Shown one piece after another: positions 1-49,049 of a stretch of DNA of 64,000 bases; within the stretch, counting starts at the first letter, position 1, and every line of letters starts with the position of its first letter. Under the pieces are notes generated by a model, which searched no databases, was not told the DNA's origin, and saw only the letters and a program-made list of their open reading frames with translations. The stretch is from Psammoneis japonica. Its lineage: Eukaryota. Location of the stretch: positions 1 to 64,000 of the forward strand of contig QPGO01000184.1 in the NCBI GenBank assembly GCA_008632985.1, read 5' to 3'. A program made the translations under genes and the position numbers.

Positions 1-1130
1 CCACAGCATCCAGCAATGAAGAAATTGGATGGGGTGCCCCGCCGACCCGTTGACCCACTGACCCCGGGTCATCGGGTCGGCGGTTCGGCGGGTCGGTGGG
101 TCGGTGGTTCGGTGGGTCAATGGGTCGGCGGGTCGGCGGGTCAGCGAGTCGGTGGGTCGGGGGGTCGTGGGTCGGCGAGTCGGCAGGTCGGCGGGTCGGC
201 GGGTTGGTGGGTCGGCGGGTCAGTGGGTCGGCGGGTCAGTGGGTCGGCAGGTCGGTGGGCCAACGGGTCGGCGGGGCACCCCATCCGGGGTCGGTGGGTC
301 GGCGAGTCGGTGGGTCGGTGGGTCGGCGGGTCGGCGGGTCGGTCGGGGGTCGGGGGGTCAGCGGGTCAGCGTGAAGGGGGGTCCGGCGGGTTGGCGGGTC
401 GGTGGGTCGGGGTCGGCGGGTCGGCGGGTCGGCGGGTCGGCGGGTCGTGGTCGGTGGTCGGTGGGTCGGCGAGCGGTGGGTGGTGGGTCGGCGGGTCGGT
501 GGGTCGGTGGTGGGGTCGGCGGGTCGGTGGGTCGGCGGGTCGGTGGGTCGGTGGGTCGGCGGGTCGGTGGGTCGGCGGGTCGGGGGTCGGTGGGTCGGCG
601 GGTCGNNNNNNNNNNNNNNNNNNNNNNNNNNNNNNNNNNNNNNNNNNNNNNNNNNNNNNNNNNNNNNNNNNNNNNNNNNNNNNNNNNNNNNNNNNNNNNN
701 NNNNNNNNNNNNNNNNNNNNNNNNNNNNNNNNNNNNNNNNNNNNNNNNNNNNNNNNNNNNNNNNNNNNNNNNNNNNNNNNNNNNNNNNNNNNNNNNNNNN
801 NNNNNNNNNNNNNNNNNNNNNNNNNNNNNNNNNNNNNNNNNNNNNNNNNNNNNNNNNNNNNNNNNNNNNNNNNNNNNNNNNNNNNNNNNNNNNNNNNNNN
901 NNNNNNNNNNNNNNNNNNNNNNNNNNNNNNNNNNNNNNNNNNNNNNNNNNNNNNNNNNNNGACCCACCGACCCGCCGACCCGCTGACCCGCTGACCTGCC
1001 GACCAGCTGACCCGCTGACAGTCAGACCCGCTGACCTGCTGACCCGCCGACCCACCAAACCACAACCCCACCCCCAACCCCAGCCCCACAAACCCCAAGC
1101 ACAATTGACCCCAATCAAGTGACAGCCACA
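1..1130. repeat. Composite satellite: GGTCGGYG-type 8-mer arrays (inverted across an assembly gap), conserved CCAGCAATGAAGAAATTGGATGGGG block and degenerate telomere-like hexamers
   Basis: 8-mer array at ~70-605, reverse-complement array at 961-1060, N gap at 606-960. The same conserved block recurs at ~1905-1930 (minus), 37225, 38380, 41120, 41340, 41600 and 41720. Confidence 0.85.
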
Positions 1131-1434
1131 GCACTCAAAATTTTTGCACAAATGACACACAGAGATTGTGCTTCCGTGTCTGCACACGCGGTCTTGATTG
1201 TTGATTTAAAAGAGTCATTTTCGCCAAAAATTGGCGACAGTTTCAACAAAAAACTCTGAATTGACAGGAGGCAGAAAATGCCTGAGACTCTGTCGCAATG
1301 AACACCACAAGGATCGCTGAAGCTTGGCATGTCAGGATCGGCAGCATGAGCTGAGAGCCGGGCTCAATCTCTTCAAGAGGCTTCAAATGCCCACATCAAG
1401 AACTTTGCTTCTCTCTCAGGGATGTTTTGCCACT

Positions 1435-1830
1435 GACGCGTTCCAGACGCAGGCGGGAATCCGTGTGAAATTGGGCCCCTGGAATTCTGCGTGCGAGCTC
1501 CGCAGTGAAATCACACGGCAAGCAGAGCGTCAATGATCGCCAACAGAAAATGAGGCAATTTGGCGAGCGCACAAACTCGCCCATGATTGAAGCACATCAT
1601 TTTTTGCTCAGCCAGCTGCGCTCTTCAGATGTTGAAGAATGCAGCTGGTGCGCCATTGTTTCCACAAATTTGTTGCACAAAACGTCTGGGGCTTTGCAAA
1701 ACAGCGAGTCCAGACAATTTTTTTTAAATGTCACACATTGAGGTGCACGTCCAAAACATGCGACGGATGACAAAAATTGTTTGTGTCACACGTCAGTGCT
1801 GCGAGCTCCCGCCTGTGGCTGGAACGTGTC
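1435..1830. mobile_element. MITE family A, copy 1 (396 bp, ~22-bp TIR, 4-bp TSD)
   Basis: Left end GACGCGTTCCAGACGCAGGCGGGA; right end reverse complement GACACGTTCCAGCCACAGGCGGGA. Flanks CACT/CGCT. Aligns end to end, inverted, with 16123-16518. Confidence 0.8.
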
Positions 1831-1954: not shown

Positions 1955-2125
1955 GACGGGCTCCAGTTCTGGGCAGGACCTTTTGTGACATTGGGCCCGC
2001 AGAATTCTGCGTGCGAGCTCCGTGTTGCTAGAATCCAGTCAATGGACATTGTGTCTTCAACATCAAATGAACAACCAAGTTTGTGGCACAATTGTGGCCA
2101 TTGCCGTTTGACATTTTTGGCAATC
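1955..2125. mobile_element. Truncated MITE of a related subfamily (A2)
   Basis: Starts GACGGGCTCCAG...GTGACATTGGGCCCGCAGAATTCTGCGTGCGAGCTCC, matching 37535 onward and the reverse complement of 29920-29980. Confidence 0.65.
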
Positions 2126-2129
2126 CATT

Positions 2130-2825
2130 GGCTGTGCTTGGGGTTTGTGGGGTTGGGGTTGGGGTTGGGGTTTGGTGGGTCGGCGGGTCAATGGGTTGGC
2201 GGGTCGGCAGGTCAGCGGGTCAGTTGGTCGGCAGGTTGGCGGGTCGGNNNNNNNNNNNNNNNNNNNNNNNNNNNNNNNNNNNNNNNNNNNNNNNNNNNNN
2301 NNNNNNNNNNNNNNNNNNNNNNNNNNNNNNNNNNNNNNNNNNNNNNNNNNNNNNNNNNNNNNNNNNNNNNNNNNNNNNNNNNNNNNNNNNNNNNNNNNNN
2401 NNNNNNNNNNNNNNNNNNNNNNNNNNNNNNNNNNNNNNNNNNNNNNNNNNNNNNNNNNNNNNNNNNNNNNNNNNNNNNNNNNNNNNNNNNNNNNNNNNNN
2501 NNNNNNNNNNNNNNNNNNNNNNNNNNNNNNNNNNNNNNNNNNNNNNNNNNNNNNNNNNNNNNNNNNNNNNNNNNNNNNNNNNNNNNNNNNNNNNNNNNNN
2601 NNNNNNNNNNNNNNNNNNNNNNNNNNNNNNNNNNNNNNNNNNNNNNNNNNNNNNNNNNNNNNNNNNNNNNNNNNNNNNCACTGACGGAAACACAATCTCT
2701 GTGTGTCATTTGTGCAAAAATTTTTGATGTGCTGTGACTGTCACTTGATTGGAGTTGATTGTGCTTGGGGCTTGTGGGGTCAGGGTTGGGGCTGGGGTTG
2801 GGGTTTGGCGGGTCAGCGGGTCAGC
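2130..2825. repeat. Composite satellite copies with degenerate TTAGGG-like hexamers, separated by an assembly gap
   Basis: GGGGTT/GGGTCA runs at 2148-2172 and 2777-2806. 2680-2825 is an inverted copy of ~1040-1180. N gap at 2248-2678. Confidence 0.75.
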
Positions 2826-3930
2826 ACCGAGCGCATCATGCGCTGGCGGTTGACATGCGAAGAATGCGGTCCCGAATTACACTGTGTCAAGGGCACCCAT
2901 GACCCAGTCGCTGACGCTCTCAATCACCTTCGGCTGGCACCCAGCTTGCCTTCCGAGGCCAATCCGGATGTAAAAGACACTCCATCGAGTCGTCCTTTGC
3001 ATGAAGCTTTTAATGCAGACGCGCAAGACGATGCATCTCTGCCCATTGGCTTCAAGCACATTCAAAAAGAACAACAAAAGGACAAGCGCCCACTCTCACG
3101 AGCTGAGGACTCGTCCGACCACTCCATTTGCGCGTGTCGTGGGGGAGGGTCATCACGACAGTCAATCTGTCACAAGGAAAAAATCGCAGCACCACAGTCA
3201 TTGCAGGTTCTGCTAACTGAATGGCGCCACGAGACACTGTGTCATCCAGGTGAGACACGTGCGGAAATGTCTGTTGCCCAGCACTTCTGCTGGCCTGGTG
3301 TGAGGTCTACGGTGCATTCTACGTGCGTCAAGTGCGATCGATGTCAGAAGACAAAACGCCGAATGCAGCGTTGTGGGAAGCTGCCAGAAAAGGTCGCCGA
3401 GATGATTCCATGGGAGACTCTGCGCACAGACATGACAGGGCCACATAAAATTCAAAGACACGGAAAGTGTTTTTCAGCACAGGATGTGGAGCCAGACGAA
3501 GATGACCCATGGAGTGGCATCCTCTCCGCAGCAGCCTTCGCCATTAGAGCTGCGGCACACACGACCACCCGTGCAAGTCCCATGCAATTGGTCTTCGGAC
3601 GCGATGCGGTTTCATCCATTGCCCATCATGCCAAGTGGAAGCACATAGAAACCAGAAAGCAGAAGCTCATCCACTTGAACAACAAGCGTGAAAATCAGAA
3701 ACGCAAGGAGTGTCAATGTGCCGCAGGGCAAATGGCACTTGTCAAACAGGAACAATCCTCTAAATGCGGTTCTGACAGCCATGCAGGACCCGCCAGAGTT
3801 GTCCATGTGTGTGACAATGGCACGTTGCGCATCCAGAACGGAGTGCTGACAGACACGCACAATCTATGGCAGATTGCACCCTGTCACCAGCAAGACATCC
3901 TGTCACTTAACGGCCCTGATCATGGGGGAG
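2826..3930 (+). mobile_element. Ty3/Gypsy pol 3' fragment (RNase H end, integrase with internal deletion), hypermutated
   Basis: ERIMRWRLxxEECGPELHCVKG...ADAL (expected EEYGPELxYIKG), zinc finger W(Y>R)HETLCHPG...CVKCDRCQKTK, and ASPMQLVFGRD. The integrase core is missing. A polypurine tract GGGGGAG lies at ~3924-3930. Confidence 0.85.
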
Positions 3931-4329
3931 TGTGCAGCATGCCTCGCTGCTGGACAACACGGCGAGACCGTGCATGAGCCTCTTGTGCGTGGCAACGTGG
4001 CATTGTTGACATGCACCTGGGAAGCATGACCACAGGAGGGCGTGGCTCTGGGTCTCAGGCAATTCCAGAAGGACATTAAGAGAGGATCCGTGTGAAGCAC
4101 ACCAGCCCGTCGTCTGGCCCACGATGGCAGTGTGATTCCACACGATGACATCACTCGTGCACAGTGCGTGATGGCTTGATTCGCACGATCCACAATGCGA
4201 ACGCACGATCGATTTGATGCGATCCAAATGCGAACAAACAGGGATTTGGCAAGATTCCCTGTTCGCACGATCCCACTTTTTCCACTCTAAACCAGCTCAT
4301 AATTTTCACAACAACAAAGTCGCAACACA
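3931..4329 (+). repeat. Probable Gypsy 3' LTR
   Basis: Begins TG immediately after the polypurine tract, with a candidate ...AACACA end at ~4329. No second LTR is present to confirm the boundaries. Confidence 0.45.
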
Positions 4330-4356
4330 TCTTCTTTTTCTGCGAAAATGCAAAAA

Positions 4357-4406: not shown

Positions 4407-4984
4407 TCTCTGAATCTTTGGCACATGACATCTTGTCTGTCAGCGCGACAATGTGTTTTGTGTGTTGGCTTCACGACAAGGTGCTGTGCCCAGCAAATGC
4501 CCGTCATCAGAGTGCACGATGTTGCGACATCTGCACACATGACAAAAATGCATTGCCACACCACAAAATCTGCTTGTCTGCACATGATGGTTTTTGTCAT
4601 TTGGCTGATCATTGATCTCCTGCTGTTCTTCATGTTTGAGCACAGGCGCTTTTTGATTTTTTTGATTTTTGTGCTCAGCCTTTTTCACAACAGCTGACGA
4701 TCTTTGACAACAAGCCAAACATTGCAGTTGCACGCAATGAAATTTTCATCATGCAAAGTGCATGCCAATCATTCAATCAACAACTGTGCTCCAGCTGGCC
4801 TGTTCATCCGCATCGTCCTCTTCACTCTGTGTGTCTTGTCCGCTCTCTTGCAAGAATTTCAAATGTGCGCGCCGCTGCCATGTTGGATGTTTCCTCATCA
4901 CCATTCCAAAAAAGCCACACTGCACTTCTTGCATTTGGGCGAACATCATCAAGAGGAGGAGGTCCCTCGAAGTGCAGAATCTTG

Positions 4985-5614
4985 TCACTGCTCCCCTCTT
5001 GACATTGTGTTGTCTGCTTCTTTTTCTCTTTCTTCATTTTTCCCGCCCCACTTTTCTCTTCCTTCTTCATCTTGGCGCCGCCTGTTTTCACCGTCTCCGG
5101 CGTCTTTCCACCCGAATCCTTCTTTTTCATCGACCCAGTTGCCGTTGCCTTCATCATGCGTCACTTTGTTTTGGACCCATGTTTCTGACTTCTCTCTGTG
5201 CTGCCCCCATTTCCGAATGTTTCTTTGTGGTTGTTCGCATGCGTCACTTGAAGGCACCCACATGTTCTTCACGCACCTTGCTGCGCATGTAGAAACCCAT
5301 GTTGTTTTCCAGTGCATGCACCCTTTCTCCTGATGCTGTTCTGCGCAATGTTTTCTTCCATCAATTCTGCACTCCGCACTGCCCTTTCCCGGCGCAATCT
5401 CACTTGGGATTTCTCTGGGAGAAGTTGCACACGCGTCTGGCAGGTTTTTGTGCACAAAACTCCAAATCCTGCCAGGTGTGCATGCAACTTCTCCCACGCA
5501 CCACTCTGGCATGTTTCCACAGAAGCCAGAATTTTGTGGCTGACGCGCGACCAATCTGGTGAATGCAACGGCGGACCCACGACCACAACAATCAGAGCAT
5601 TGGAAGAGGGCCAT
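4985..5614 (-). pseudogene. Transposon accessory ORF (ORF4), unknown function
   Basis: Same frame is open in copy 2 (35865-36533) with a charged C-terminus. No recognisable domain. Confidence 0.4.
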
Positions 5615-6600
5615 GTCAGATGAACTCTGTCCATCCGCTGCTGAGGATTTCTGTTGCCGGATGATGGAGACAGTTGATGGTTTTGTTCACGCTGACGCTG
5701 CTTGTTGTTTGGAGGAACAGAGAGCAAAGGATGCAAAGGCTGCTGTGTCAAGATCGGCAGAAGCAATGGCAGAAGCCCGTTGTGCCGTTGTGGCTGCAAC
5801 GACCGCACTTGACAGTGCTTTGTTAAATCAAGCAACAACCACTTGCGAATTTGAGCACATCCATGAACAGCTCATTGAGTCATTGATCGAGACACACCAT
5901 TCAGACAACGACTGCATTGTTGCAGTGGAAAATTGCAGCGAAGCGGAAATGAGTTTCCAGCGCTTTCTTCACGGCGACAATCTCCGTTGCGGGACATCAA
6001 AAATCAGAATTGAGGCTGCACATGCTGCACATGCTGCACAGCTGTGACTCGACATTGCTTCTGAGAAGCCTCAGGGCAAATTCTGACACAGACGCCAACA
6101 GAGTGGTGGAGAGGGAGCAATCTGCGATTGACAGCATCAACAAATCCATCCACCGCCGTGCCGTGCCACTCCTTCGAAGGCGACATCTGACACAGCCGCT
6201 GTGCGTCCTGAAGGATGCAATCACGTTGCTTCACGTGGCCCTCGACGATTTGAGAAGGAAAAACGTTGCCTTGCAGCGACAGTGGCAAGCTTTGCATGAT
6301 CTGTGGCCAGGCACAGATCAAATGCGGGGAGGGACATGGACCGCGATCCGGGCCATGGACGAAGAAGCCGTGGCAAGAGAAAGGGTCCTGCAGTTGGCAT
6401 TGCAAATCGAGGCACAATTGGTGGCTGTCAACCAGCCTGACCACAGCGCCGACTTTCAGCAGGCAATTGTGGCTGCCAGGGAACATTTCATGGCGCAGGA
6501 TGACTGAGTGGACCATGCAAGTGGACACTGCATGGAATCTGTGAGGAAGCAATTGCTCTGAAACTGCACACACTGTGAGTGAATGACAGATTGACACACG
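5613..6600 (+). pseudogene. Transposon accessory ORF (ORF3) convergent with the transposase, frameshifted
   Basis: MSDELCPS... then LLLRSLRANSD... Copy 2 (34721-35866) retains a GKPSDQExxxLGVSE segment also seen in the ORF at 22812-23675. Confidence 0.5.
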
Positions 6601-6604
6601 TGTC

Positions 6605-9600
6605 CTGTTTTAGAAACAAATCTGACCAACACTTCCTTCTGTCCTGTGTGGCCCAAACAAGCGGGGCCTTTTCTTGTGCTTCTGCTGCTCCTGGACATTC
6701 TTCACAAACCAAAACATTGTCCCCAATTGCTTTGACAGGGACAACACGTGACTCAGGTGAGTGCTGAGTCTTCTCAGGCATTGAAAGCCAGTTGTTTTGT
6801 TTGTGATCAAGCTGCCAGCGACTGACCAAGTCTGCATGCTGACACGGTTGCCTCACAGTTCTCTGGTCAGCTTGACAAGCAGTTGGATGGACAACTGCAA
6901 AAATCGATCCTGTGTCTTCCTGTTCAAAGAAACACAGCAAACGGGAGGGAAACTGTTGATCGCCCTTTCGTGTGCCAAAGGTCACACAGGCAAAGTCATG
7001 CCATGGTCCTTCGCTTTTGCAATCGGGGTGCACATGGTGCGTGTCCCTCCTGCTTGCATTGCAAAACTCTGTCTTGCAAGTCAGGTGTGCATTTTCACTG
7101 TCTTCACCAACACAATCCTCCCACTTTTCCGACTTGAAGTTCAGCGACACAGGACGAACTTGGCAACGAGCATGCTCGCTGCTCCACTCAAACGTCACAG
7201 TGTCAATCCCTTGGTTGCAGGTGAGAGTGAGTGCACTTCCTCCCAGCATGTGATTGTCCGTCCTGACTCTTGATGATTCCTTTTTCCCAGTTGGCAAAAT
7301 CCAACTGTTGGCTGAAATTGTGGCGTTGAGCCTCATTTGGTCCTCCATGCGTGACATGACCTGCTTCAGAAAACTGTTGAGGTTGCGTTGTTGTGCGGCA
7401 GATGACGACAGCTTGAAAAAGTCTTTCAAGAGACATTCCCCCAAGCCTGCATCAAAGTTCATTGCATGTCGGCAATGACAAAGAAACGCTGGGAGATGGA
7501 GTGTTTCATGAAGCTTTTGAAGCTTCCACCCGCATCCTTCTGTTTGCGGGACGAATTGCACTGTCCGGTCAATGAGGAGACGGACTTTCTTGTTTGTTTT
7601 CTGAACAGATGAGCTGGGAGTTGCGCTTGTGATGGGTGGATCGCCTGGCCTGCGCCATGCGTGGAAGACAAGAAGGTCCTCGAGCAATTGAATGAATTGC
7701 CGGACGCTGCAGCTGAGTCTTTTTCCCTTGTGTTTTTTCTTTTTTTGGTTGTCGTCACCATCCTCAGCCTCACTCTCCTCTTTCTCATCCTCATTTTCGT
7801 CCCAGTCACCCTCTTTGGACTCCTCCAACCTTTCATCGTCAGAGTCGTCCATGTGCTCACTGGGTTGGCAGTGACTCTCAAAGTTTGCTTTGGGAATCTT
7901 GCAATTCTCTGGAACAACGGGTTCGTCTGCATCCTCGTCAAGGAAGCATGACTCACATGCGTTTCGTCCCTCGCTGGCCAACAGCAGAAGGCAGAAAACA
8001 AAAGCCATTCCAGCCCAGTGGTGAGAGTTGAGGAAGGTGAGCGACGTTGCTCCTCCTTTGAAGTTGGTTCGCAAAAAGGATGCTTTGCAAGTTGACTGGT
8101 GATTGCTGAAAATCCTTTCCACCATGCTGTCCACCTCACTTGCGACCACAGGTGTCATGCTGTCTACAAATGAATTGATTGCCCTTTTCAAGGTGCCATT
8201 TTCAAAGAGATGCATCATGTCGCTTGCTGTTGCAAGGGCAACACCGCATGGTTGTGCACCAAAGTTTGCCTCAAAAAGACAGTTGGCAGGTGCGTTGTGT
8301 TGCTTGAGGCAATGCAAGATGCCCAGCCAGTGCTTCCTTTCTTGGCCTGATCTGTTGTTGTCGTTGGCCTTGGTTTGCACTTGGCGGAGATCCAGTCCTT
8401 GGATGAACTCGCATTCAATCCATGGGTCGTCCAGTTTGTTGAAGCCAGTTGGGCAAAAACGACAGCAACGTTGACAACAGTTGTGACCTCTGCATCGTCC
8501 AACGAGACAGTCGCTGCTTTTTGCGTCTCCTGTGATGAGAACGATCAGTGGGATCATGCGGAGGTGTTGCATCTCATCCCCTCGTTGCGTGCATGTTTTC
8601 ATGCCTCCTTTTCTCATGACTTCCAAAAGTGGCTCCAAAATGACACGCAAGCAAGTGTGGCAGTCTCTCAACGAGCGTCCCTTCTCCGCCTTGCGACTGT
8701 TTGAGAGATTCTTTGCCACAGATGACGACATCTTTTCCAAATCCAGGAGACAACCAATTGGTTTCCAGACACTCTTGTCTGACCATTTGTTGAAGGCAAC
8801 ATGCACAGAGGTCATGATCGCTGGTTCTCCACAACATGATCCCATCCCTTGTGTCCTGCCAGTCTTGTCAAGGTGGATGACATTGCACCCGAGAAATTGT
8901 TTCTCTGGGTCAGTTGTCCGTTCTTTGCAACTGCGCCTGCACCACTCACCCGCCAAAAGGCACTTGTCATCCGGTCCCTTTGCTTTGCACTTCCCAAAAG
9001 GATTGTCTGGATCGGCCACATTCTCTCTGCTGCACCACAGGTGAGGATCGAGCAAAAACTGTTCCCAGACCTTTGTGAAATCCCATCTTGGCACTGACAC
9101 TCGTTTTGGCAAACCGGTTTTGAAATTTTTGGTTTCTAGAGTGACAGGAACAGACTCGCTGGGTGGAAGAGGGAAATGCTTGGTTAAGGTGTGCATCAAC
9201 TGTTTTCTCCTTGGCAGAACTGCACCAAGCTCAATGTTGCTGTTGCCAGTGTGCCTCTCAATGAAATCAACAATGCAGTCGCACAATTCCAGGGGAGCAC
9301 CACGTGTGTCCATGAGCTTCTTGCACAACTCTGCGCAAGCTCCGTCAAGATTTGTCAAAGAGGGAGCAGAAGCCAAGGCCTCTTCTGCAGGAGCATCACA
9401 CCTGATCCCCAAACGTTGATCCTCATCGTTGATGTCCTCTTCCTCCTCCATTGTCATGTCCAACGCTGCAGCAAAGGATTGACCACCGCCAACATCCAAA
9501 TCGTTCATTGCCAAAAGTTCAACTCCTTGCATGCTGTGGTTTGATGAAATGGAGGACATGTCGTCCATTCCGTGCGGTGCGTCATCCGGGGAGGGGAACA

Positions 9601-9829
9601 AGGGGCTGCTGCTCGGATCACTTGTTGAAGATCTTGGGAATCTGCTGCGAGTTGATCGCCTTGGATGGGATTCATCATCATCAGAGGACGAAGAGGAAGA
9701 GCTGCAGCTTTCTTTGGGTGGCCCCTCTGTTGTGGCAGGAATGTTGCTTTGATCTGGGATTGGATCTTGGGTTTGCAACTCTTGGGCAACTGAGCAACAC
9801 GTCGGTGAGTGTCTCCAATGGCAGGCCAT
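6605..9829 (-). pseudogene. Plavaka/CACTA-like DDE transposase, hypermutated (no Tyr in 1113 codons)
   Basis: Motifs xLDKTG, ITGDAKxxDCLVGR, CxxC, SDMMHLFENG, WKLQKLHE and HPxxKSEGPWxD. Ancestral TAG stop inferred at 6605-6607 (CAG here, TGG in copy 2). Start uncertain. Family assigned from motif recall, not a search. Confidence 0.75.
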
Positions 9830-10262
9830 TCACAAAAAACTTTGGCCACAACCGGGACAGAGAAGAGGGTTTCCGTCCATTGCAAATCAGACAATGTTGA
9901 CAGGGCCTTCCTCAAGACTCACACTCGTCGTCCTTGTGAAGGGAAAAAAAGAACAACACGCAAAAAATGGCGGGAAATTGGCAAACATTGCATTGTCTTC
10001 CAGATTGGGATGATTCTCACAGGTGTGACGTGTCTGCATTTTGATTTTTTGTCTGGCATCCACAGCGAACATTGCACTTTTTATTTGCTGTCAAAATGCA
10101 GGATGTCATCTCCGTTGAAACACAATGACAGCCACATCAAAAAGCAAGTTGGGCTGTTTGTTGTCACACACAAATGTGTTTTCAAATTTCAGTGTTGCTG
10201 ACAATGATTTGTGCAATGCCACAGAGAAAAACAGAGTGCCTGGCTGTCTCAACATGACCCAA

Positions 10263-11705
10263 ATGATGGTTGCACTGTCGAACAGTGCCACTCCTCTCAT
10301 TGTTGCCATGAAAAGATCAAGATGCCGTCTCCAGCCGGCAAAGAAGAGAAAGAAAAATGAGGCCATTGAGCCAATGAGCCCGAGACTTCAGGCAGTGTTG
10401 AAGAGAACAGGTGCACAGGCAGCGCATGGTGCACTGAAATCAGAAGCAGAGAAGGTGGCCAGAAATGATCTCTTTCCACAGGTGAAGTTTCTCAGTCCGT
10501 CAGAATTGGCAAGCAATGGGAGCGCCTCAATGTTTGTGAAGAAACAGATTGCTGGTGGCAACGTGGACACTTCAAATTGGTCAGGAACTTGGGAGGAATG
10601 GGCAAAAAAGAGCGTCTCAATGTTTGTGAAGAAACAGATTGCTGGTGGCAACATGGACACTTCAAATTGGTCAGGAACTTGGGAGAAATGGGCAAAAAAG
10701 GCAGAAAAAAGGCAAATTGACAATCACAGAAACACGGTGTGTTTGGCCATTGGGGCAGAGGCAATGGCCCGCAAGTCAAGTGACCAATGTGTGTGATTCG
10801 AGAGTTGCGTGCATCTCACAAGAAGATGACGGCAATGCTTTGTTTGCACAGGCGTTGTCACTGAGGAAGAGGGAAAGGAAAAAGAAAAGAAACTCAAGGC
10901 AGCAGACAGGAGGAAAAAGAGGAAAAAGTCAAGCCATGACAAGAATGAAGAGAATGACATCCCGTTTGTGCCGACATGGGATCTGTTTGGCCCAGACACC
11001 ATCACCAGCGGCAAACGAAGGAACAAGCAGGCGCGCAAGTGGTTCTGTGATCACATCCTGCCTCAAACCAAGCAAAAGCAGGCATGGAGTGGCGCCATCA
11101 AAGCTGGGAACGCACAGGTCTCACAGTTGTTTGCGGTCGGTGACGAAGCTTTGGCACTGTCAGCCATGGAGAATTGTTGGCAGGTGTGGGCATGCAGGAA
11201 CAAGGAGGAGGCAGTGGAAAAATTGGGTGAGGAAATGGAGCCCGAAGAAACAAGGCCTGCCCCTTGGCACATGAAGCCAAAGAAACAACAAGTGTCTTGG
11301 GGAGACAGCAGAATCAATTGGTCCAACGATTTGTGCAAAGAGGTGATGAAAGACAGAGACTCCAAGGAGGGCAAGGAGTTTGAAAAGTGGTGTGCGGAGA
11401 TCAAGAAAAGCGAGTGCGAGAAGTCCGGAGAAGCAAAAAAGAAGAAAAAGAAAGCACCGACCGGTGATGCGGACAAGGTGAAGGCAATGGACAGCCTGAT
11501 GGTGGAGAGCAGCAGGGACGACAATGCTGACAATGATGAGCAGGAGGAAGGTGCAAAAGGCAAAACGGACGAAGGAGGAGACGAGTCCGATGGAGACGAG
11601 TCCGATGATGATCATCAGCTCAGTTCAAGAGAGTTGCAGCAAGAAAATGTGTGCACAGCCAACATGGCACTCGGCAATTGCACTGCAGATGTGACAAGGG
11701 ATTGA
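10263..11705 (+). pseudogene. Transposon accessory ORF2, divergent from the transposase; two exons (intron 10771-10851)
   Basis: Removing 10771-10851 (GCAAGT...CACAG) joins the two ORF-track frames. Contains a VGDEALALSAMENxW motif and an acidic tail. Homologues at 30278-31640 and 15870-16690. Confidence 0.6.
10521..10700 (+). repeat. 90-bp in-frame tandem duplication in ORF2
   Basis: 10521-10610 is nearly identical to 10611-10700. Single copy in the second element. Confidence 0.9.
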
Positions 11706-32900: not shown

Positions 32901-35900
32901 AGTTTGTCCGAGGACTGGATCTCCACCAAGTGCAAACCAAGGCCAACGACGACAACAGATCAGGCCAAGAAAGGAAGCACTGGCTGGGCATCTTGCATTG
33001 CCTCAAGCAACACAACGCACCTGCCAACTGTCTTTTTGAGGCAGACTTTGGCGCACAACCATGCGGCGTTGCCCTTGCAACAGCAAGCGACATGATGCAT
33101 CTCTTTGAAAACGGCACCTTGAAAAGGGCAATCAATTCATTTGTAGACAGCATGACACCTGTGGTCGCAAGTGAGGTGGACAGCACAGTGGAAAGGATTT
33201 TCAGCAATCACCGGTCAACTTGCAAAGCATCCTTTTTGCAAACAAACTTCAAAGGAGGAGCAATGTCGCTTGCCTTCCTCAACTCTCACCACTGGGCTGG
33301 AATGGCTTTTGTTTTCTACCTTCTCCTGTTGACCAGCGAGGGACGAAACGCATGTGAGTCATGCTTCCTTGATGAGGACGCAGACGAACCCATTGTTCCA
33401 GAGAATCGCAAGACACCCAAAGTGAACTTTGAGAGTTGCTGCCAACCCAGTGAGTGCTTGGACTCTGACAATGAAAGGTCGGAGGAGTCCAAAGAGGGTG
33501 ACTGGGACAAAAATGAGGACAAGAAAGAAGAGAGCGAGGCTGAGGATGGTGACGACAACCAAAAAAAGAAAAAATGCAAGGGAAAAAGACTTGGCTGCAG
33601 CGTCCGGCAATTCATTCAATTGCTTGAGGACCTTCTTGTCTTCCACGCATGGCACAGGCCAGGCGATCCACCCATCACAAGCGCAACTCCCAGTTCATCT
33701 GTTCAGAAAACAAACAAGAAAATCCGTCTCCTCATTGACTGGACAGTGCAATTCATCCCGCAAACAGAAGGATGCAGGTGGAAGCTTCAAAAGCTTCATG
33801 AAACACTCCATCTCCCAGCGTTTCTTTGTCATTGCTGACATGTGATGAACTCTGATGCAGGCTTGGGGGAATGTCTCTTGAAAGACTTTTTCAAGCTGTC
33901 ATCATCCACGGCACAACAACGCAACCTTGACAGTTTTCTGAAGCAGGTCGTGTTGCGCATGGAGGGCCAAATGAGGCTCAATGCCGCAATTTCAGCCAAC
34001 AGTTGGATTTTGCCAACTGGGAAAAAAGAATCATCAAGAGTCAGGATGGACAATCACACGCTGGGAGGAAGCACGTTCACTCTCACCTGCAACCAAGGGA
34101 TCGGCACTGTGACGTTTGAGTGGAACAGCTTGCATGCTCGTTGCCAAGTTCACCCTGTGTTGCCAAACTTCATGTCGGAAAAGTGGGAGGATTGTGTTGG
34201 TGAAGACAGCGAAAGTGCACACCTCACTTGTAAGACAGAGTTTTGCAATGCAAACGGGAGGGATGCGTGCCGTGCGCACCCCAACTGCAAAAGCGAAGGA
34301 CCATGGCATGACTTTGCCCATGTGACCTTTGGCGCACGAAAGGGCGATCAACAGTTTCCCTCCCGTTTGCTGTGTTTCTTTGAACAGGAAGACACAGGAT
34401 TGATTTTTGCAGTGGTCCATCCAACTGCTTGTCAAGTTGACCAGAGAACTGTGAGGCAACAGCATCAGTGTGCAGACTTGGTCAGTCGCTGGCAGCTTGA
34501 TCACAAACGAAACAACTGGCTTTCAATGCCTGAGAAGACTCAGCACTCACCTGAGTTACGTGTTGTCCCTGTTGAAGCAATTGGGGACAATGTTTTGGTT
34601 TATGAAGAATGTCCAGGAGCAGCAGAAGCTCAAGAAAAGGCCCCATTTGTTTGGGCTGCACAGGACAGAAGGAAGTGTTGGTCAGATTTGTTTCTAAAAT
34701 GGGGTGCGCACGTCAATCTGTCATTCACTCACAGTGATTTCCCAACTCTTTCTTGCAAACATGATGAGTTTGATCCTTTCAGAATTGGCAAAGTCATTGT
34801 GGCACATGTGAGGCAGTGCGGTGCGAGCACCTTCCGTTGCTTTTGTTCTGATGTCTTCTTCTGAAACTCCAAGACAAGCTTCTTCCTGATCGGAAGGCTT
34901 TCCCAACCACCGACATGACAGGAAACTCTGATGCATCAGATGTGTGCAGTTTTGGACCAATTGCTTCCTCATGGATTCTGTGCAGTGTCCACTTGCACGG
35001 TCCATTTAGTCATCCTGCGCCATGAAATGTTCCCTGGCAGTCGGCACTGTGGTCAGGCTGGTTGACAGCCACCAATTGTGCCTCGATTTGCAATGCCAAC
35101 TGCAGGACCCTTTCTCTTGCCATGGCTTCTTCGTCCACAGCCCGGATTGCGGTCCACATCCCTCCCCGCATTTGATCTGTGCCTGGCCTCAGATCATGCA
35201 AAGCTTGCCACTGTTGCTGCCAGGCAACGTCTTTCCTCATCAAATTGTCGAGGGCCTCGTGGAGCAACGTGATTGCATCCTTCAGGATGCACTGCGGCTG
35301 TGTTAGATGTCACCTTCGAAGGAGTGGCATGGCATGGCGGTGGATGGATTTGTCAATGCTGTTAATTCTGTGTCAGAATTTGCCCTGAGGCTTCTCAGAA
35401 GCAACATTGAGTCACAGCTGTGCAGCGTGTGTGGCCCACATTCTGATTTTTGATGTCCCACAACAAAGATTGGGAGCCCCAGTTCTTTTGCGTCAAATGC
35501 ATTGCCGTGAAGAAAGCGTTGGAAACTCATTTCTGCTTTGCTGCAATTTTCCACTGCAACAACACAGTTGTTGTCTGAACAGTGTGTCTCGATCGATGAC
35601 TCAATGCACTGCACATGGATGTGCTTAAACTCGCAAGTGGTTGTTGCTTGATTTGACAAAGCACTCTCAAGTGTGGTCGTTGCAGCCACACCGGCACGAC
35701 GGGCTTCTGCCATTGCTTCCACCAATCTTGACACAGCAGCCTTTGCATCCTTTGCTCTCTGTTCCTCCAAACAACAAGCAGCATCAGCGTGAACAAAACC
35801 ATCAACTGTCTCCATCATCCGGCGACAGAAATCCTCATCAGCGGATGGACAGAGTTCATCTGACATGGTTTTCTTCCAATGCTCTGATTGTTGTGGTCAT

Positions 35901-36936
35901 GGGTCCGCCATTGCATTCACCAGATTGGTCGTGCGTCAGTCACAAAATTCTGGTTTCCACAGAAACACACCAGAGTGGTGCGCGGGAGAAGTTGCACACG
36001 CGCCTGGTGGGATTTGGAGTTTCAAACACAAAAACCTGCCAGACGCGTGTGCAACTTCTCCCAGGGAAATCCTGTGTGAGATTGCACTGGGAAAGGGCAA
36101 TGCGGAGTGCAGAATTGATGGAAGAAAACATTGTGCAAACATGCATCAGGAGAAAGGGTGCATGCACTGGAAAACAACATGGGTTTCTACATGCGCGTTA
36201 AGGCACGTGAAGAACACGTGGGTGCCTTCAAGTGACGCACGCGAACAACCACAAAGAAACATTTGGAAATGGAGATGGCACAGAGAGAAGTCAGAAACAT
36301 GGATCCAAAACAAAGTGACACACAATGAAGGCGACGGCAACGGGATCGATGAAAAAGAAGGATTCAGATGGAAAGACGCCGGAGACGGTGAAAACAGGCG
36401 GCGCCAAGATGAAGAAGGAAGAGAAAAATGGGACGGGCAAAATGAAGAAAGAGAAAAAGAAGCAGATGACACGATGTCAAGAGGGGAGCAGCGATGCAAT
36501 TCTGCATTTCAAGGGACCTCTTCCTCTCGATGATGTTCACCCAAATGCAAGAAATGCAGTGTGTTTTTTTGGAACGGTGATGAGGAAACATCCAATGCGG
36601 CAGCGGCACATTTGAAATTCTTGCAAGAGAGCGGACAAGACATGTGGAATGAAGAGGATGATGCGGACGAGTGGGCCAATTGGAGCACAGTCATTGACCA
36701 AATGATTGGTGCACACTTCACATGATGAAAATTTCATTGCATGCAATTGCAACATTTGGCTTGTCATTAAAGATCGTCAGTTGTTGAGAAAAAGACAGAG
36801 CATAAAAATTAAAAAGCATCTGTGTTCAAACATGAAGAATGGCAGGAGATTGACAATGTGCAGATGAGTGAATTTTACAACATGGCAACACAATTTTGTC
36901 ATGCACGCAGATGTCACGATGTCGTGCACTCTGATG
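29982..36936 (+). mobile_element. CACTA/Plavaka-like DNA transposon, family 1 copy 2 (7.0 kb, inverted relative to copy 1)
   Basis: TIRs CATCAGAGTGCAC / GTGCACTCTGATG. 2-bp TSD AA supported by the uninterrupted MITE end at 38048-38084. About 0.6 kb of the transposase 5' region is deleted at ~31940. Confidence 0.9.
31940..34702 (+). pseudogene. Plavaka/CACTA-like transposase (copy 2), 5'-deleted and frameshifted
   Basis: ORF-track frames 31975, 32199, 32423 and 33842 align to the copy-1 protein. Confidence 0.8.
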
Positions 36937-36964
36937 AACATCCCACCCAGGACTGGAACCCATC

Positions 36965-38820
36965 AGGGACAAGGACAATCAGGGCATGGGATGAAAGGGA
37001 ACTTCAGCGCCAACCCACCGACCCACCGACCCACCTGCCCACCAACCTGCCGACCCACCGACCCGCCGACCCGCCAACCCACCAACCCACCGACTGACCG
37101 ACCCTCCAACCCGCCGACCCGCCAACCCACCGACCCGCCAACCCACCGACCCACAGACCCGCAGACCCACCTGCCCACCGACCAACCAACCAAACAACCA
37201 ACCAACCAAGAGACGTGACTTGATGTCCAGCAATGAAGAAATGAGATGGGGTGCAGCAATTGCCCCATGAAGAATGTTGGTGCACTCTTCAACACCAACA
37301 TTTTCCAGCTGAGTGCCAATCACATTGAAAATGTGGCCTGTGAATGGAGTCAACAACAGGACCAGCGGCCCTTGGATCACATTGTTGCACCATTGACTCC
37401 AATCAAGTGACAGCCACAGCAATGCATCCAAACCAAAAGAGTGCAACCCACTCAATCTTCTTCTTAAGAGGTTTGACATCCTTTTGAAAAGTTCCTTGGA
37501 CAAATGAGTGTGGGAAGAAGCAGTGGATCTAACAGATGGGTTCCAGTCCCAGGCGGGACTTTTTGTGACATTGGGCCCACAGAATTCTACGTGCGAGCTC
37601 CGCATTGCAAGAACTCAATTGATGGATGTTTTTGTCTTCAACATCAAACATTGTGACCATTGCCACTTCATGTTTTTGCAAACACGCATGCCCCACGCCA
37701 TTCTCAAGACATTTGCAAATGGCTCAGAAGAAAGAAATGTCAAAAGTTGTTGGACGGATCGCTCAACAAGTGCACCACAAAATAACACAAAATTTCACAA
37801 AAGTCACGCACCTTTCTACGTGCTCGACATGCGGTGCGATCCAAAAAACCATTGATGTCACAGTTCGGCCGTGCGAGGTCACACCCAGAGCTGGAACACG
37901 TCCACTGTGAAAATTCTGATGCAGCTCTACAATGCGTGAGAACCTTCTCCCATCAAAGGCTTTGGCAGTCTCCATTTGAAAGATTTTTTTCCAATTGCGA
38001 AAGATTGAAGTGTCAAAAATGAAGTTGCACAGAATTCCACAAGCCAAGTGTCACAAAATGTCCCACCTGGGACTGGAGCCCATCAGAGACAATTAGAATC
38101 AGGGCGTGGGATGAAAAGGAACTTCAGCACTGACCCACTGACCGGCCGACCCACCAACCGGCTGACCCGCCAACCCACCGGCCCGCCAACCCACCGGCCC
38201 GCCGACCCGCCGACCCACCAACCTGCCGACTGCCGACCCACCGACCCGCTGACCCGCCGACCTGCCGACCTGCCGACTCACCGACCGACCGACCCACCGA
38301 CCCGCCGACCCACCAACCCGCCGACCAACCAACCAACCAACCAACCCACTGACCAACAAGCCAAGGGACGTGATTTGATGTCCAGCAATGAAGAAATTGG
38401 ATGGGGCACAGCAATTGCCCCATGAAGAATGTTGGTGCACTCTTCGAGACCAACATTTTCCAGCTGAGTGCAAATCACATTGAAAATTGTGACGCTGTGA
38501 ATGGAGTCAACAAAAGGACCAGCGGCCCTTGGATCACATTGTTGCGCTGTTGACTCCAATCAAGTGACAGCCACAGCAATGCATCCAACCCAAAAAAATG
38601 CAACCCACTCAATCTTCTTCTTGGCAGGTTTGAAATCCTTTGGAAAAGTTCCTTGGACAAATGAGTGTGGGAAGAACCAGTGGATCTCACCGTGAAAATT
38701 CTCACACAGCTCTGCAATGCGTGAGAACCTTCTCCCATCACAGTCTTTGGCAGCATCCATTTGAAAGAATTTTTCCAATTGTGAAAGATTGAAGTTTTAA
38801 AAATGAAGTTGCTCAGCATG
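36965..38820. repeat. Tandem composite satellite units (GACCCRCC arrays plus conserved ~550-bp body)
   Basis: Two units (~36970-38030 and ~38085-38815) with a shared body. The first carries a MITE insertion. Confidence 0.8.
37535..37902. mobile_element. MITE A2 copy
   Basis: Ends GATGGGTTCCAG / CTGGAACACGTC. The empty site GGATCT-CACC-GTGAAAATT at ~38683-38700 implies a 4-bp duplication. Confidence 0.8.
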
Positions 38821-40970: not shown

Positions 40971-41866
40971 TGACCCGCCGACCCGCCGACCCGCCAACCC
41001 ACCAACCCGCAGACCCGCAGACCCGCCGACCCGCCAACCCGCCGACCCACCGACCCCCCAACCCCCTGACCCACCGACCCACCGTCCCACTGACCAACCA
41101 ACCAAGGGACGTGATTTGATGTCCAGCAATGAAGAAATTGGACGAGGCACAGCAGTTGCCCCATGAAGAATGTTGGTGCACTCTTCGACACCAACATTTT
41201 CCAGCTGAGTGCAAATCACATTGAAAACTGTGACGCTGTGACCCGCCGACCCATCGACACAAGGAGAATCAGGGTGTGGGATGAAAAGGAACTTCAGCGC
41301 TGACCCACCAACCCGCCAACCCAAGGGACCTGATTTGATGTCCAGCAATGAAGAAATTGGATGAGGCACAGCGGTTGCCCCATGAAGAGTGTTGGTGCAC
41401 TCTTCGACACCAACATTTTCCAGCTGAGTGCAAATCACATTGAAAATTGTGACGCTGTGAATGGAGTCAACAACAGGACCAGTGGCCCTTGGATCACATT
41501 GTTGCAGTGTTGACTCCAATCAAGTGACAGCCACAGCAATGCATCCAAACCCAAAAAATGCAACCCACTGACCAACCAACCAAGGGATGTGATTTGATGT
41601 CCAGCAATGAAGAAATTGGATGGGGCGCCCCGCTGACCTGCCGACCCGACGACCCGCCGACCCACCAACCCGTCGACCCACCAACCCACTGACCAGCCAA
41701 CCAAGGGACGTGATTTGATGTCCAGCAATGAAGAAATTGGACAAGGCACAGCAATTGCCCCATGAAGAATGTTGGTGAAACCTTCGACACCAACATTTTC
41801 CAGCTGAGTGCAAATCACATTGAAAATTGTGATGCTGTGAATGGAGTCAACAACAGGACCAGTGGC
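40971..41866. repeat. Four partial tandem composite-satellite units
   Basis: Repeated GATTTGATGTCCAGCAATGAAGAAATTGG blocks interleaved with 8-mer arrays. Confidence 0.85.
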
Positions 41867-42960: not shown

Positions 42961-43199
42961 GCTGGCTTCAAATCAAAGTTGCGAAGCAGGTTGCAGAGGA
43001 AGCATGTGGAATTCTGCCTGGGATGCAGGTCCCATCTGTAGAATGTGCTGCTGACAATCAGCACAAGGTGCCAAAAGCCAGTGAAATGGCAATGAGTTGT
43101 CTCACTGACTCGTGCTTGGTTGAAATTACAAGCTGAATCTAACCCAAAAGTGATTCCCTGGTTTTGCAATCCAAGACATCTCGGACAATGCCACATCAG

Positions 43200-46050
43200 T
43201 CCCAGAAAGCAGACACTCTTCGAATGTCACTCAAGCAGAACAGCTCGTCACTTGAATCGTCCTTTCCAATGTCCAACTTGGCTGCACAGAAATTCTAAGA
43301 AGATCGGACATCTTGAAATGTCCACTGTCTCTCTAAAATGTCACATCATTGAGTCGTTGGTCATCAGTTTTTCTTTTGTCATGTGGCCACAAATGCAAGC
43401 CACAAGGCGCACAGTGAAGGCCAAGGCAAAAGCAGAACCATGCACAGCTGACAACAACAATGTGGTGGATTGAATGGTCACCCTCATTCTTCTAATTTGC
43501 ACATCTCATGTGCAGAATGAAGGGGATCATTCAGATCACTCTTTTGCAGTGCATTCAGCAAGGGAAGCCATGAGGCACATCCAGTGTGAAGGATGAGGCA
43601 AAACAGGAGCCGCACATGGTTGATGAAAATGTGGCAGATTGATTGACAATGTTTGTTCTTCCCTTTGACCCATCTCATGCACAGAGTGCATTGCATCATT
43701 TTTTCCTTCTTGTGTCATGTGGTCACAAATGCAAACCACAACGGCTCCAGAGCAAAGGCCAAGGCAAAAATGGAGACGCACATGAGCAATGTCAACATGT
43801 GTGACACAATGGCAAAGTTTGTTCTTCCCTTGCTCTGCCATGAGGGGCCGCTTTGTGTCGATTTGTCGATGCATCCGTCATGGTCAGCAGCGGCAGAGCA
43901 TGGCTTGCTTTCTGGTTGAATGTGTCAAAAGCACACATGCCCACATGAGATGAGATGGGAATTGCCGCACTGCGCTCATTTTTTGTTCCTTCCCCTGACC
44001 CCTTTCAGTCGTTCCTTCCCGCTAAATTGCCCTCATTTCCCGGGTGTTCCCCAAAAGGGTGAGGCAATTCCCCCTCACCCTTGCCATTTTGGGGAATCCC
44101 CACATGGGCAAAACCAAACTGAGGCACCAGAGCTCCAGCCACATGGTGCTGTCAGCCATTGGGCACGGTCTTTTCTTGCAAAGTTCATCAACGCCCCAAC
44201 AAGCTTTGTGGGGATGATGAAGACCACCGCTTTTTGCTCTGTTCATCAGAGACCCATGGAAAAGGCTGCGAGTGACAGGTCATCGAACCCCACCATCTCA
44301 TGATGTGTGCACACATGCATGCAAACATTGGCCGACAGCCCTCCAGATTGAAGCAGACATTCACTCACTGAGATCCAAACGTGCATTTTGCCCAATCATT
44401 TTTTTGGCCTTTGGCAGACTTGCAGGCAATTTGCCAACAATCAAAGACAGCATTTGAGGGACTGTGCCACCTTGGAAAATGTGCGCTGGGTGGGGGATGC
44501 AAAACCAAAAACCAAACACACCCTGACAATTGCCTCCCATCTGCAAAGGAAAGAATGTGTTGTCCACAGTGTGTTGCCCAAAGATCTTGTGAAGAATGGT
44601 GGCACAAATGCTCATTTGCCTAACAGCAGCACTGTGTGCCATCAAACAAATTGCTTTGACTTTCAACTTGGACATCTCAGGGTGTGTTTTAAACTCTGTT
44701 TGCAAATGCCAGGCACTGTTGGCAGAACTGGGTGGTGACCCAGGGACTGCAATGATGGTGAGATGCTCCATCACTTCCTGAGAGAAAGGCTTGCAGCAAT
44801 GTTGTGGTGCATTGCTGCATGTCCAGGACAAAGAGTGGCAAGCATGGATGACATGACACTTGTTTTGCATCCTGACACACAGCCGGTGACTTGGGCCACG
44901 TTGACTGCATCCCCATTGAAGTGACAATGTGAAGAATTGTGCACCTGGGACAGAACCAATCTCCTGGTCACATTTGGCAAATTTGGCAAATGCTTTCAGA
45001 AAAGGAGAGTTGGCAGGGCAAATGAGTTCCAAGGTGATTTTGAAAGCCAGTTGGGAGGAAACATTTGCCGCACATGGGGGGCAATCATTTCCCACAGCAA
45101 AGGAAGGCAACATTGCTCATGTTGCAAACAGAGTGATGTGGAAATGCACAGGAGAGGCAAAAACATTGACACCAGACACATGGCAGGCAACAAGAATGTT
45201 TTGAAAAAGTCAACTTGTGCATCGACGTGCATGATCATGGCATGAATCAGTGGGCAAGATTGGTTGCCTTCACGCCGGTCTGCCCGCCGGCTTGCATCCA
45301 GCAATCAACAATTTAAGACAAATCTGGCTGATCTCAATGACAGCAATTTTGTCATGCTGGCATGCATCTTGGATTGTTGCGTGACCAGATGCACCTCAAG
45401 TCCTGCTGGACAATGAAGCACATGAAGACACTCCTTTGTGAGTTGCCGCCTCAGCATGCTTGGCTTGAGGAGGCCTTTTTTCCCTTGGCATGTCTGACAT
45501 CAGCTGCAGCTGGGCATCGTTTGGCTCCAATTGCAGCTGGAGGTTTGACTCCATTGCTTGAAAGCACAGCGGCCAACAGAGTTGGTGTGGGCAGCCCCAG
45601 GATTCTGTTTGCGGTGCTGACGACTTCATCGTGTTTTTCGGTCTGCGCTCATTTGCACCACCACCTCTGCTGCTGGTTGGTGCAAAAGCCATGGCTTCAG
45701 ACAAAGGAAATTCAAGCAGACCACCAGGTGTGACTGATGGCCATGCATTCCCCCCCCCCAGAGCCAGGCACAGAGCCACAAAGAAGCAGCGCAAGCGGAC
45801 AGGATGAGGAACAACACAGCAGAGTGGTTGAACCTGAGCCAGACAACAAAAGATGGCAGCTGTCACACCCACCAAGAGCGCACTTAATGAAGTCAAATTT
45901 GAAGCAGTTCTACGGTGGGAAAAACTCAAGCAGTGTCATCTGTCACCTCACTGCAGGTAGAGTTGCACTAAACACAGCGACACCGTTGCGAGGGCGACAT
46001 GCCAAAAAATCATTGCGCGATTCGCATGCGCGAATTATGTCGGTGACGAA
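43200..46050. repeat. Unclassified TA-depleted (and largely CpG-poor) repeat-derived sequence
   Basis: Same compositional signature. Internal imperfect duplication at ~43365-43470 / 43700-43800. No recognisable protein. Confidence 0.5.
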
Positions 46051-49012: not shown

Positions 49013-49049
49013 ATTTAGATGGATGCCAATTGATAGTTGCATCATGATT

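Follow-up and report, generated by a model that had tools for sequence, protein, structure and literature searches.

Why has the dinucleotide 5'-TpA-3' vanished almost completely from long parts of a 64,000-nucleotide (nt) stretch of Psammoneis japonica DNA (contig QPGO01000184.1, positions 1 to 64,000; the window), while the genes directly beside those parts retain it? An earlier interpretation that was made from the letters of the window (the sequence-only reading) had proposed a chromosomal mutator that converts A:T pairs into G:C pairs at TpA and that is aimed at repeats. The findings in this work argue for such a process in transposon DNA. At the level of sequence comparison, they establish the direction of the change, its restriction to TpA, its action on DNA after insertion, its use of both strands, and its sharp confinement. 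The same kind of process is already known, recently, from one organism, the chlorarachniophyte Bigelowiella natans, and the diatom case belongs to another major lineage.

Extent of TpA depletion

The window consists of two kinds of DNA. The TpA-erased kind covers roughly the first 46,036 nt and a second part between about 51,650 and 54,350, and the remainder is normal. The two erased parts are as follows, where obs/exp denotes the ratio of observed to expected dinucleotide counts and kb denotes kilobases.

2679 to 46036, no strand: main TpA-erased block of nested, degraded transposons; TpA obs/exp about 0.06, CpG 0.57, TG/CA about 1.6
51650 to 54350, no strand: second TpA-erased island, between expressed host genes; CpG obs/exp 0.14 in the 52-54 kb bin

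All 2-kb bins from 1 to 46000 contain only 1-15 TAs (TpA obs/exp 0.01-0.20), which bears out the near-absence over 46 kb that the sequence-only reading had described. A recount confirms its spot values, with no TA in 7201-8100 and 20 TAs in 48121-48300. The 52-54 kb bin exhibits 5 TAs (TpA obs/exp 0.04), whereas the normal bins (46-52 kb and 54-64 kb) exhibit 56-109 TAs (0.44-0.73). The borders between erased and normal DNA lie at about 45.9-46.04, 51.64-51.8, and 54.35-54.5 kb and are sharp to about 100 base pairs (bp). The erasure is less complete in the 2-4 kb bin (TpA obs/exp 0.20, 13 TAs). The region 2001-4300, which is less fully erased and includes a frame for a retroelement integrase, may be a younger insertion.

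The composition figures for erased DNA refer to 2679-46036 and 51650-54350 together (46,058 nt). The first 2.7 kb was excluded because it is gapped; the window is a gapped scaffold with two N runs (606-960 and 2248-2678). The erased DNA contains 168 TAs against about 2,031 expected at the flank frequency, so that 92% of the expected TAs are missing. The TpA obs/exp is 0.06 in the erased DNA and 0.63 in the flanking genes, and with the sharp edges this agrees with the earlier claim that host genes are spared. TpG (1.64 inside and 1.19 outside) and CpA (1.61 inside and 1.17 outside) are enriched in the erased DNA, whereas CpG is depleted (0.57 inside and 0.98 outside). The deficit of TA and CG (59.3 per kb) is nearly balanced by the surplus of TG and CA (55.4 per kb). 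The values of AA, AT, and TT are close to those of the flanks. AA, which had been described as spared, indeed exhibits an obs/exp of 1.27 inside and 1.14 outside. Relative to the flanks, TC differs by -1.1 per kb and GA by -4.0 per kb. The loss of CpG with a gain of TpG and CpA resembles 5-methylcytosine deamination. This CpG decay is a second, ordinary layer in the erased repeats that cannot remove TpA.

Transposons inside the erased DNA

The elements that were identified at the TpA-erased end of the window are listed below.

4504 to 12002, minus strand: Plavaka-type (CACTA-like) DNA transposon, copy B, which pairs with 29982-36937
6491 to 9829, minus strand: hypermutated frame of copy B, probably a Plavaka-like transposase, 1113 codons, open, without tyrosine (Tyr)
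29982 to 36937, plus strand: Plavaka-type transposon, copy A, with its frame split by one TGA at 33836-33838
19056 to 22635, plus strand: third, more diverged Plavaka-like remnant, aligned to homologue P0003
14194 to 15868, minus strand: Copia (RVT_2 / RNase H) remnant in three frames, found by tblastn with homologue P0282 (53-57% identity)
2685 to 3974, plus strand: frame with a retroelement integrase zinc-binding domain (Ty3/Gypsy-type), found by Pfam
16123 to 16524, plus strand: short repeat of about 400 bp, less-mutated copy with 11 TAs left, found by self-comparison
1429 to 1830, minus strand: partner copy of the short repeat, found by self-comparison

Copies A and B were identified by self-comparison of the window as an inverted pair of about 7 kb, and they are 84-93% identical. 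The 1113-codon frame of copy B contains no Tyr, as the sequence-only reading had stated, and 5.3% Cys. A HMMER search with this frame identified 1100 homologues that are aligned over about 900 residues. Homologues P0003, P0004, and P0005 score above the Pfam cut-off for PF18759 (Plavaka transposase) and P0008 scores below it. The frame itself has no Pfam match, and its invariant columns are kept (including D321, E335, D435, and D440).

The Copia identity of the remnant at 14194-15868 is taken from the single long homologue of its HVDD-bearing frame, P0282, which is a polyprotein of 1387 residues with RVT_2. The Copia fragments gave no reverse transcriptase match in Pfam at E up to 1, and neither did 26 frames of 50-108 residues. 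The altered Copia motifs that had been read by eye (HVDD in place of YVDD, LCGL, THSS, and WCSK) were located at 14553-15571 on the minus strand, and the altered Gypsy motifs (EECG and WRHE) were located at 2859 and 3222 on the plus strand. The list of affected element classes in the sequence-only reading stands in part: the DNA transposon (Plavaka), the long terminal repeat retroelement (Copia), and the short repeat are all hit, whereas no long interspersed nuclear element was found in the window and the satellite at 65-605 is uninformative.

The erasure is confined to transposon-derived DNA, with Plavaka, Copia, and integrase remnants inside the erased parts and diatom genes in the flanks. 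A Pfam search of the 196 stop-to-stop frames of at least 110 residues, the majority of which fall in the erased 1-46 kb, identified a transposon-type domain in only one frame, inside the erased block. Two-copy tandem duplications are also present in the transposon remnants at 10520-10700 (90 bp, 96% match) and 23913-24144 (114 bp, 81%).

Direction of the changes

Since TA and CG both give TG or CA, paired copies do not reveal which of them was ancestral, and intact homologues were therefore used as outgroups. Every one of the nearest 60 homologues of the Plavaka frame contains 1.5-4.5% Tyr. Conserved-Tyr columns were defined as those with Tyr in at least half of these homologues. The window frame exhibits Cys at five, His at three, and Arg at two of the ten columns so defined (10/10). 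Other conserved residues are largely kept (Trp in 9/10 columns, His in 8/9, and Cys in 6/7). Compared to the closest homologue, P0002 (59% identity), the frame has TGY, CAY, or CGC codons at 16/18 Tyr sites, against a background content of Cys, His, and Arg of 14.5% in the frame.

All three Plavaka copies exhibit the same pattern when they are compared to P0003, where Cys, His, or Arg is present at 18/31, 16/28, and 17/28 Tyr sites and the number of retained Tyr is 0, 2, and 0, respectively; the second set of values belongs to the third remnant (19056-22635). The Copia remnant at the 18 Tyr sites of P0282 has His at nine, Cys at four, Phe at two, Trp at two, Glu at one, and Tyr at none. Polarisation is also provided by the short repeat, where the 11 TAs of 16123-16524 read TG (6), CA (3), CG (1), and TA (1) in 1429-1830.

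Since the polarisation by homologues agrees with that by the short repeat, the change is assigned as A:T→G:C at TpA, giving TG or CA and occasionally CG. As read from these alignments, the changes are A:T→G:C transitions limited to TpA. The spectrum is the one that had been anticipated, with Tyr sites of intact homologues turned into Cys, His, or Arg codons by TA→TG, CA, or CG.

Timing, strand use, and sequence context

Of the 621 differences in the alignment of copies A and B, 557 are transitions, 81% of them within YpR (pyrimidine-purine) steps, and 64 are transversions. TG in one copy faces CA in the other at 127 of the 193 adjacent double differences. Uniform CpG decay, estimated from 124 CG/CG sites and 174 sites with CG facing TG or CA, predicts only about 30 such sites. 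Most of the 127 sites are thus former TAs that were resolved separately in each copy after the copies had separated. Editing of an RNA intermediate is excluded because of this independent decay after insertion and because the element is a DNA transposon. The earlier claim of a chromosomal change on both strands of transposon DNA is upheld by the outgroup polarisation together with the independent decay of the paired copies.

The copy that carries TG is balanced between the two copies (61 and 66 of the 127 sites). A runs test on these sites exhibits 64 runs where 64.4 are expected (z = -0.07). Processive events on one strand, like those of repeat-induced point mutation (RIP) or APOBEC enzymes, were rejected for this window on the basis of this absence of strand runs. 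The hits thus occurred singly on either strand and not in processive single-strand sweeps.

The surviving TAs differ in their neighbours from the TAs of the flanks. Among the 168 surviving TAs, TTAA comprises 27.4% and CTAA/TTAG 23.2%, where the corresponding shares of the 673 TAs in the flanks are 3.7% and 6.7%. ATAT and ATAC/GTAT have no survivors, yet they comprise 23.5% of the flank TAs. The context spectrum of fully mutated sites is flank-like. These contexts suggest a preference for the 3' neighbour of the target A in the order T > C > G > A (TAY >> TAR).

Enumeration of all contexts indicates that no change of TA to TG or CA converts a sense codon into a stop codon, and that CpG decay gives stops only via CGA→TGA. 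The sole stop in copy A (the TGA at 33836-33838) aligns to CGA in copy B. The open 1113-codon frame is no evidence of function because the TpA mutator makes no stops. Long spurious frames fill the block since TA-free DNA has neither TAA nor TAG on either strand. The only hint of recent activity inside the erased block is the short-repeat copy at 16123-16524 with its 11 TAs.

Genuineness of the sequence

The only public run that contains the stretch (0.83 of sampled words) is denoted X1, and its contigs were assembled separately by Logan. The X1 contigs that bridge the edges exhibit 0-8 differences from the window overall. The contig over the edge of the main block (1406 nt, 45346-46753) has 0 differences, the contig that links the genes to the island (5981 nt, 46729-52709) has 5, and the contig from the island outward (1469 nt, 53010-54412) has 0. 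These contigs exclude an artefact of assembly or polishing. A further 1786 X1 contigs match 40-56 kb at a likeness of at least 90% (1027 of them at 90-95%), which fits many diverged relatives of these repeats.

An artefact of assembly, polishing, or sequencing chemistry that is confined to repeats is very improbable. The gaps of the scaffold and the possibility that X1 is the source of the window are in its favour. It is opposed by the identical letters of the Logan contigs over the edges, by the fixation of each site as TG or CA that differs between copies, and by the pattern of Tyr to Cys, His, or Arg that obeys codon logic. The B. natans case has also been confirmed by Illumina resequencing of lines, according to the available text of the preprint (bioRxiv 10.64898/2026.01.13.699255).

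Comparison with known systems

The sequence-only reading knew of no described pathway, and this statement has been superseded by a preprint of Mettrop et al. (14 April 2026) that reports TpA hypermutation of integrated viral DNA in B. natans (bioRxiv 10.64898/2026.01.13.699255). According to the parts of the preprint that were available, 231 of 302 new nuclear mutations in mutation-accumulation lines lie in two integrated viral regions, and 230 of these 231 are A→G or T→C, all at TpA. The genome contains 124 TpA-poor clusters rich in CpA and TpG, as well as 324 low-TpA genes, and DDE-endonuclease/transposase and reverse-transcriptase domains are enriched in these clusters and genes. The enzyme proposed there is an ADAT2-like protein, and the preprint cites reports that ADAT2 of amphioxus and trypanosomes acts on DNA.

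The window is similar to B. natans, as described in that text, in that A:T→G:C is the only change and TpA the only target, giving TpG or CpA. Both also exhibit foreign or mobile DNA that is hit beside a normal genome and that bears a TpA-poor, CpA- and TpG-rich trace. The two cases differ in the host, which is a chlorarachniophyte under Rhizaria in the former and a diatom under Stramenopiles here. They also differ in the degree of erasure, where the B. natans inserts are unsaturated (Rho TpA of 0.45 in the insert from a nucleocytoplasmic large DNA virus) and 46 kb of transposons stand at 0.06 here, and in the evidence, where de novo mutation was observed live in B. natans and the end-state sequence is what is known here. 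The words diatom, flanking, context, trinucleotide, and tetranucleotide do not occur in the preprint text as available (bioRxiv 10.64898/2026.01.13.699255). New here in addition to B. natans are that the erasure is saturated, that certain 3' neighbours are preferred, that strand runs are absent and no stops are created, that paired copies decayed independently, and that CpG decay accompanies the process. No report of TpA hypermutation in a diatom was found in the literature that was accessible to the search.

Ascomycete RIP is similar in that dinucleotide-specific transitions riddle chromosomal copies of transposons, with sharp edges and with the loss of recognition by Pfam. However, RIP changes C:G to T:A, mostly at CpA, which creates TpA and stops and lowers GC. 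The direction is the reverse here (TpA 0.06, CpA and TpG about 1.6), with no stops and a slight rise of GC. RIP also requires duplicated sequence and a premeiotic stage, neither of which is known for the diatom process. AID/APOBEC enzymes likewise provide a host mutagenesis of deaminase type that is directed against mobile DNA in a short sequence context. Their target is cytosine, mostly in single-stranded intermediates of replication or reverse transcription, in strand-coordinated runs, whereas here the A:T pair is targeted, the hits extend to integrated DNA transposons, and runs are absent.

TadA and ADAT2-3 deaminate A after U or T (U33-A34 of the anticodon loop). These enzymes and the laboratory adenine base editors are comparable to the process here by the shared need for a 5' U or T. 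No natural enzyme is known to erase TpA from chromosomal DNA. Another resemblance from the same wider lineage, SAR (Stramenopiles, Alveolata, and Rhizaria), is the 5-hydroxymethyluracil (5hmU) of dinoflagellates, a modification on transposon DNA with an old report of a TA/TC preference (PMC11572971). As described there, dinoflagellate 5hmU is an epigenetic mark instead of a fixed mutation, and a T→C signature is not mentioned.

Occurrence among Plavaka relatives

Tyr-poor relatives were sought among the best 150 of the 1100 homologues of the Plavaka frame. P0088, P0109, and P0145 contain only one Tyr each in 1127-1290 residues. They come from ENA, JGI, and NCBI assemblies, one of them in an eight-member cluster, and their identity among themselves and with the window frame is 26-39%. 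The evidence on these three is at the protein level. At the conserved-Tyr columns, P0109 has Cys at 7 of 8, P0145 has His at 7 of 11, and P0088 has His at four and Cys at three of 11, whereas four control homologues keep Tyr at 10/10, 9/10, 10/10, and 7/11. The nearly exclusive Cys of P0109 and the nearly exclusive His of P0145 hint at a strand-biased erasure in those hosts, unlike the balanced window.

A scan with P0109 for the encoding DNA found no locus. None of the 61 environmental Plavaka loci from a family scan encodes P0088, P0109, or P0145 (best identity 28-35%). Judged from these loci, the TA-erased state appears to be rare among Plavaka relatives and not a trait of the family.

Proposed explanation and its weight

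The explanation that we favour is a host process on chromosomal DNA that would turn the A:T pairs of 5'-TpA-3' into G:C, with the strand that is hit setting whether TpG or CpA results. Its target would be transposon-derived and presumably silenced DNA, and the adjoining genes would be spared. The action would follow insertion and proceed copy by copy and site by site until TpA is nearly gone, with TAT and TAC lost first and TTAA lost last. The frames would stay open while every Tyr is turned into Cys, His, or Arg, so that the proteins would be wrecked without the usual sign of decay. CpG→TpG or CpA, resembling 5-methylcytosine deamination, runs in parallel and supplies the stops. The chemistry would be adenine deamination by a candidate TadA/ADAT2-like deaminase, where the resulting hypoxanthine pairs with C. 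This deaminase would probably be brought to chromatin that is silent or foreign, where it may serve genome defence.

The whole explanation, adenine deamination included, is given a probability of about 0.6. The process as described is very probably right if the chemistry is set aside. Adenine deamination as the chemistry stands only slightly better than even; it is favoured because of the strict need for a 5' T and because an ADAT2-like protein has been proposed in B. natans (bioRxiv 10.64898/2026.01.13.699255).

Several points weigh against this explanation. TA is self-complementary, so that A→G and T→C on opposite strands cannot be told apart. The natural substrates of TadA and ADAT are U-A followed by G, A, or C, which is mismatched with the TAT optimum here. 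Newly arising TAs could account for part of the survivor contexts. Every one of the 61 environmental Plavaka loci retains TA (TpA obs/exp 0.35-0.82). X1 may be the source of the window itself and would then not be independent proof against an artefact of chemistry. The trigger may be chromatin state or foreign origin and not homology: the erased DNA is mostly repeated, yet the first 1 kb of the 51650-54350 island shares one X1 contig with the flanking genes and the island has no match to the rest of the window, so that homology is not necessarily the trigger.

Alternative explanations

The same targeted process could instead have its lesion on thymine, where in the chromatin of transposons a TET/JBP-type dioxygenase would oxidise the T of TpA and thereby yield 5-hydroxymethyl- or 5-formyl-uracil. 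Oxidised thymine mispairs with G, which would lead to T→C. Because TpA is palindromic, this lesion and adenine deamination predict an identical sequence pattern. A dinoflagellate homologue of TET/JBP has been reported to make 5hmU, a silencing mark with enrichment on transposons, and earlier studies reported that T is replaced preferentially in TA and TC (PMC11572971). However, when 5hmU was mapped at base resolution in Breviolum, it was reported to follow no sequence motif (PMC11071213). No literature link between 5hmU and diatom DNA was found, where the matches listed are dinoflagellate papers. TC is also undepleted in the erased DNA, so that the TC half of the reported preference is absent. 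We consider a thymine lesion unlikely, with a small but real chance.

Error-prone synthesis during repair or replication in heterochromatin, such as misincorporation by Pol eta opposite T at WA (W being A or T), had been named as a candidate by the sequence-only reading. Pol eta is indeed responsible in somatic hypermutation for A:T mutations at WA, many of them A→G. The undepleted AA is contrary to such an origin, as is the predominance of transitions among the copy differences (557 against 64, with 81% in YpR steps). A loss of 92% of TA would also be hard to reach by a low-fidelity patch process, and this candidate is judged to be quite improbable. Editing of transposon RNA by ADAR-type enzymes, fixed in the genome through reverse transcription, would share the preference for a U 5' of the edited A (bioRxiv 10.64898/2026.01.13.699255, available text). 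It had already been dismissed by the sequence-only reading, and rightly so, since Plavaka, Copia, and the short repeat are all hit. The DNA transposons and the short non-autonomous repeat are outside its reach, both strands are equal within one element with no runs, and two integrated copies diverged independently after insertion. This alternative is refuted for DNA elements and its overall chance is negligible. An origin without a targeted mutator would require elements that are natively TA-poor, or a loss of TA by selection, such as the avoidance of a nuclease that reads TA. The three environmental homologues P0088, P0109, and P0145 are full length and nearly Tyr-free, and a viable Tyr-free lineage could exist. 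Nevertheless, these homologues have Cys or His exactly at the columns where the controls keep Tyr, copies A and B each settled on TG or CA separately at 127 sites, the erasure is just as strong in non-coding parts and across unrelated classes of elements, and open frames are expected without selection. Native TA-poverty is largely refuted on these grounds and is highly improbable.

Wider meaning

Targeted chromosomal A:T→G:C hypermutation was unknown before the 2026 preprint on B. natans. The window adds a saturated end-state in a second, distant lineage, and among marine primary producers no group is more important than the diatoms. It is likely that the process is ancient or has arisen repeatedly and is not peculiar to one species, and its natural targets would include transposons of both classes beyond viral inserts. 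Comparative genomics provides a route to the enzyme, which should be shared by both hosts and missing from TA-normal relatives. If it is a deaminase, it would amount to a naturally occurring adenine editor of DNA with context specificity. The erased transposons also carry a warning for annotation, where they keep long frames, gene callers are likely to over-predict, and Pfam is blind to them.

A broader reading, which we offer tentatively and regard as somewhat doubtful, is that diatoms and chlorarachniophytes share a dedicated defence enzyme, a natural DNA adenine deaminase specific for T-A-pyrimidine. Such an enzyme would be recruited to silent or foreign chromatin, would act on all classes of mobile elements as a mirror of RIP, and would be widespread in marine SAR. 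The Tyr-poor P0088, P0109, and P0145 would then be its footprints elsewhere.

Host genes and other features

The normal parts of the window consist of the following features.

46037 to 51649, no strand: host gene stretch with normal dinucleotides, with a PEN-2 exon at 48298-48723 on the plus strand
49433 to 51100, minus strand: host ankyrin-repeat gene with normal TpA, single exon, expressed
54351 to 64000, no strand: host gene stretch with normal dinucleotides, with Helicase_C at 56944-57360 and PIG-U at 62240-62602, both on the plus strand

The ankyrin-repeat gene has 219 relatives, and all matches with a named organism are diatoms, which places the window in a diatom and supports the host that had been supposed. 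The best match is from Asterionellopsis glacialis (MMETSP0707, taxid 33640; 62% identity), and the other named relatives are from Amphora, Helicotheca, Seminavis, Chaetoceros, Odontella, Mayamaea, and Nitzschia. A frame of 452 residues with normal composition at 57950-59305 on the minus strand has no homologue in a collection of 5.8 billion proteins and no Pfam domain, and it may represent either an orphan gene or a frame that is open by chance. The 51650-54350 island has no Pfam domain and includes an (AG)n run at 52897-53000.

GC-rich 8-mer arrays (CGGGTCGG / GACCCGCC, with CpG→CpA variants) are present at 65-605, 961-1053, 37013-37207, 38132-38326, and 40972-41103. They adjoin both N gaps and are dispersed across the erased block, and they are simple repeats that are uninformative on mutation.

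Spliced contigs of another run (X2) lie on the flanking genes and are absent from most of the erased DNA, where missing cover is not evidence of silence. The X2 contigs at 46383-48802 exhibit introns of 86, 145, and 947 nt with CT..AC ends and one of 88 nt with GT..AG ends.

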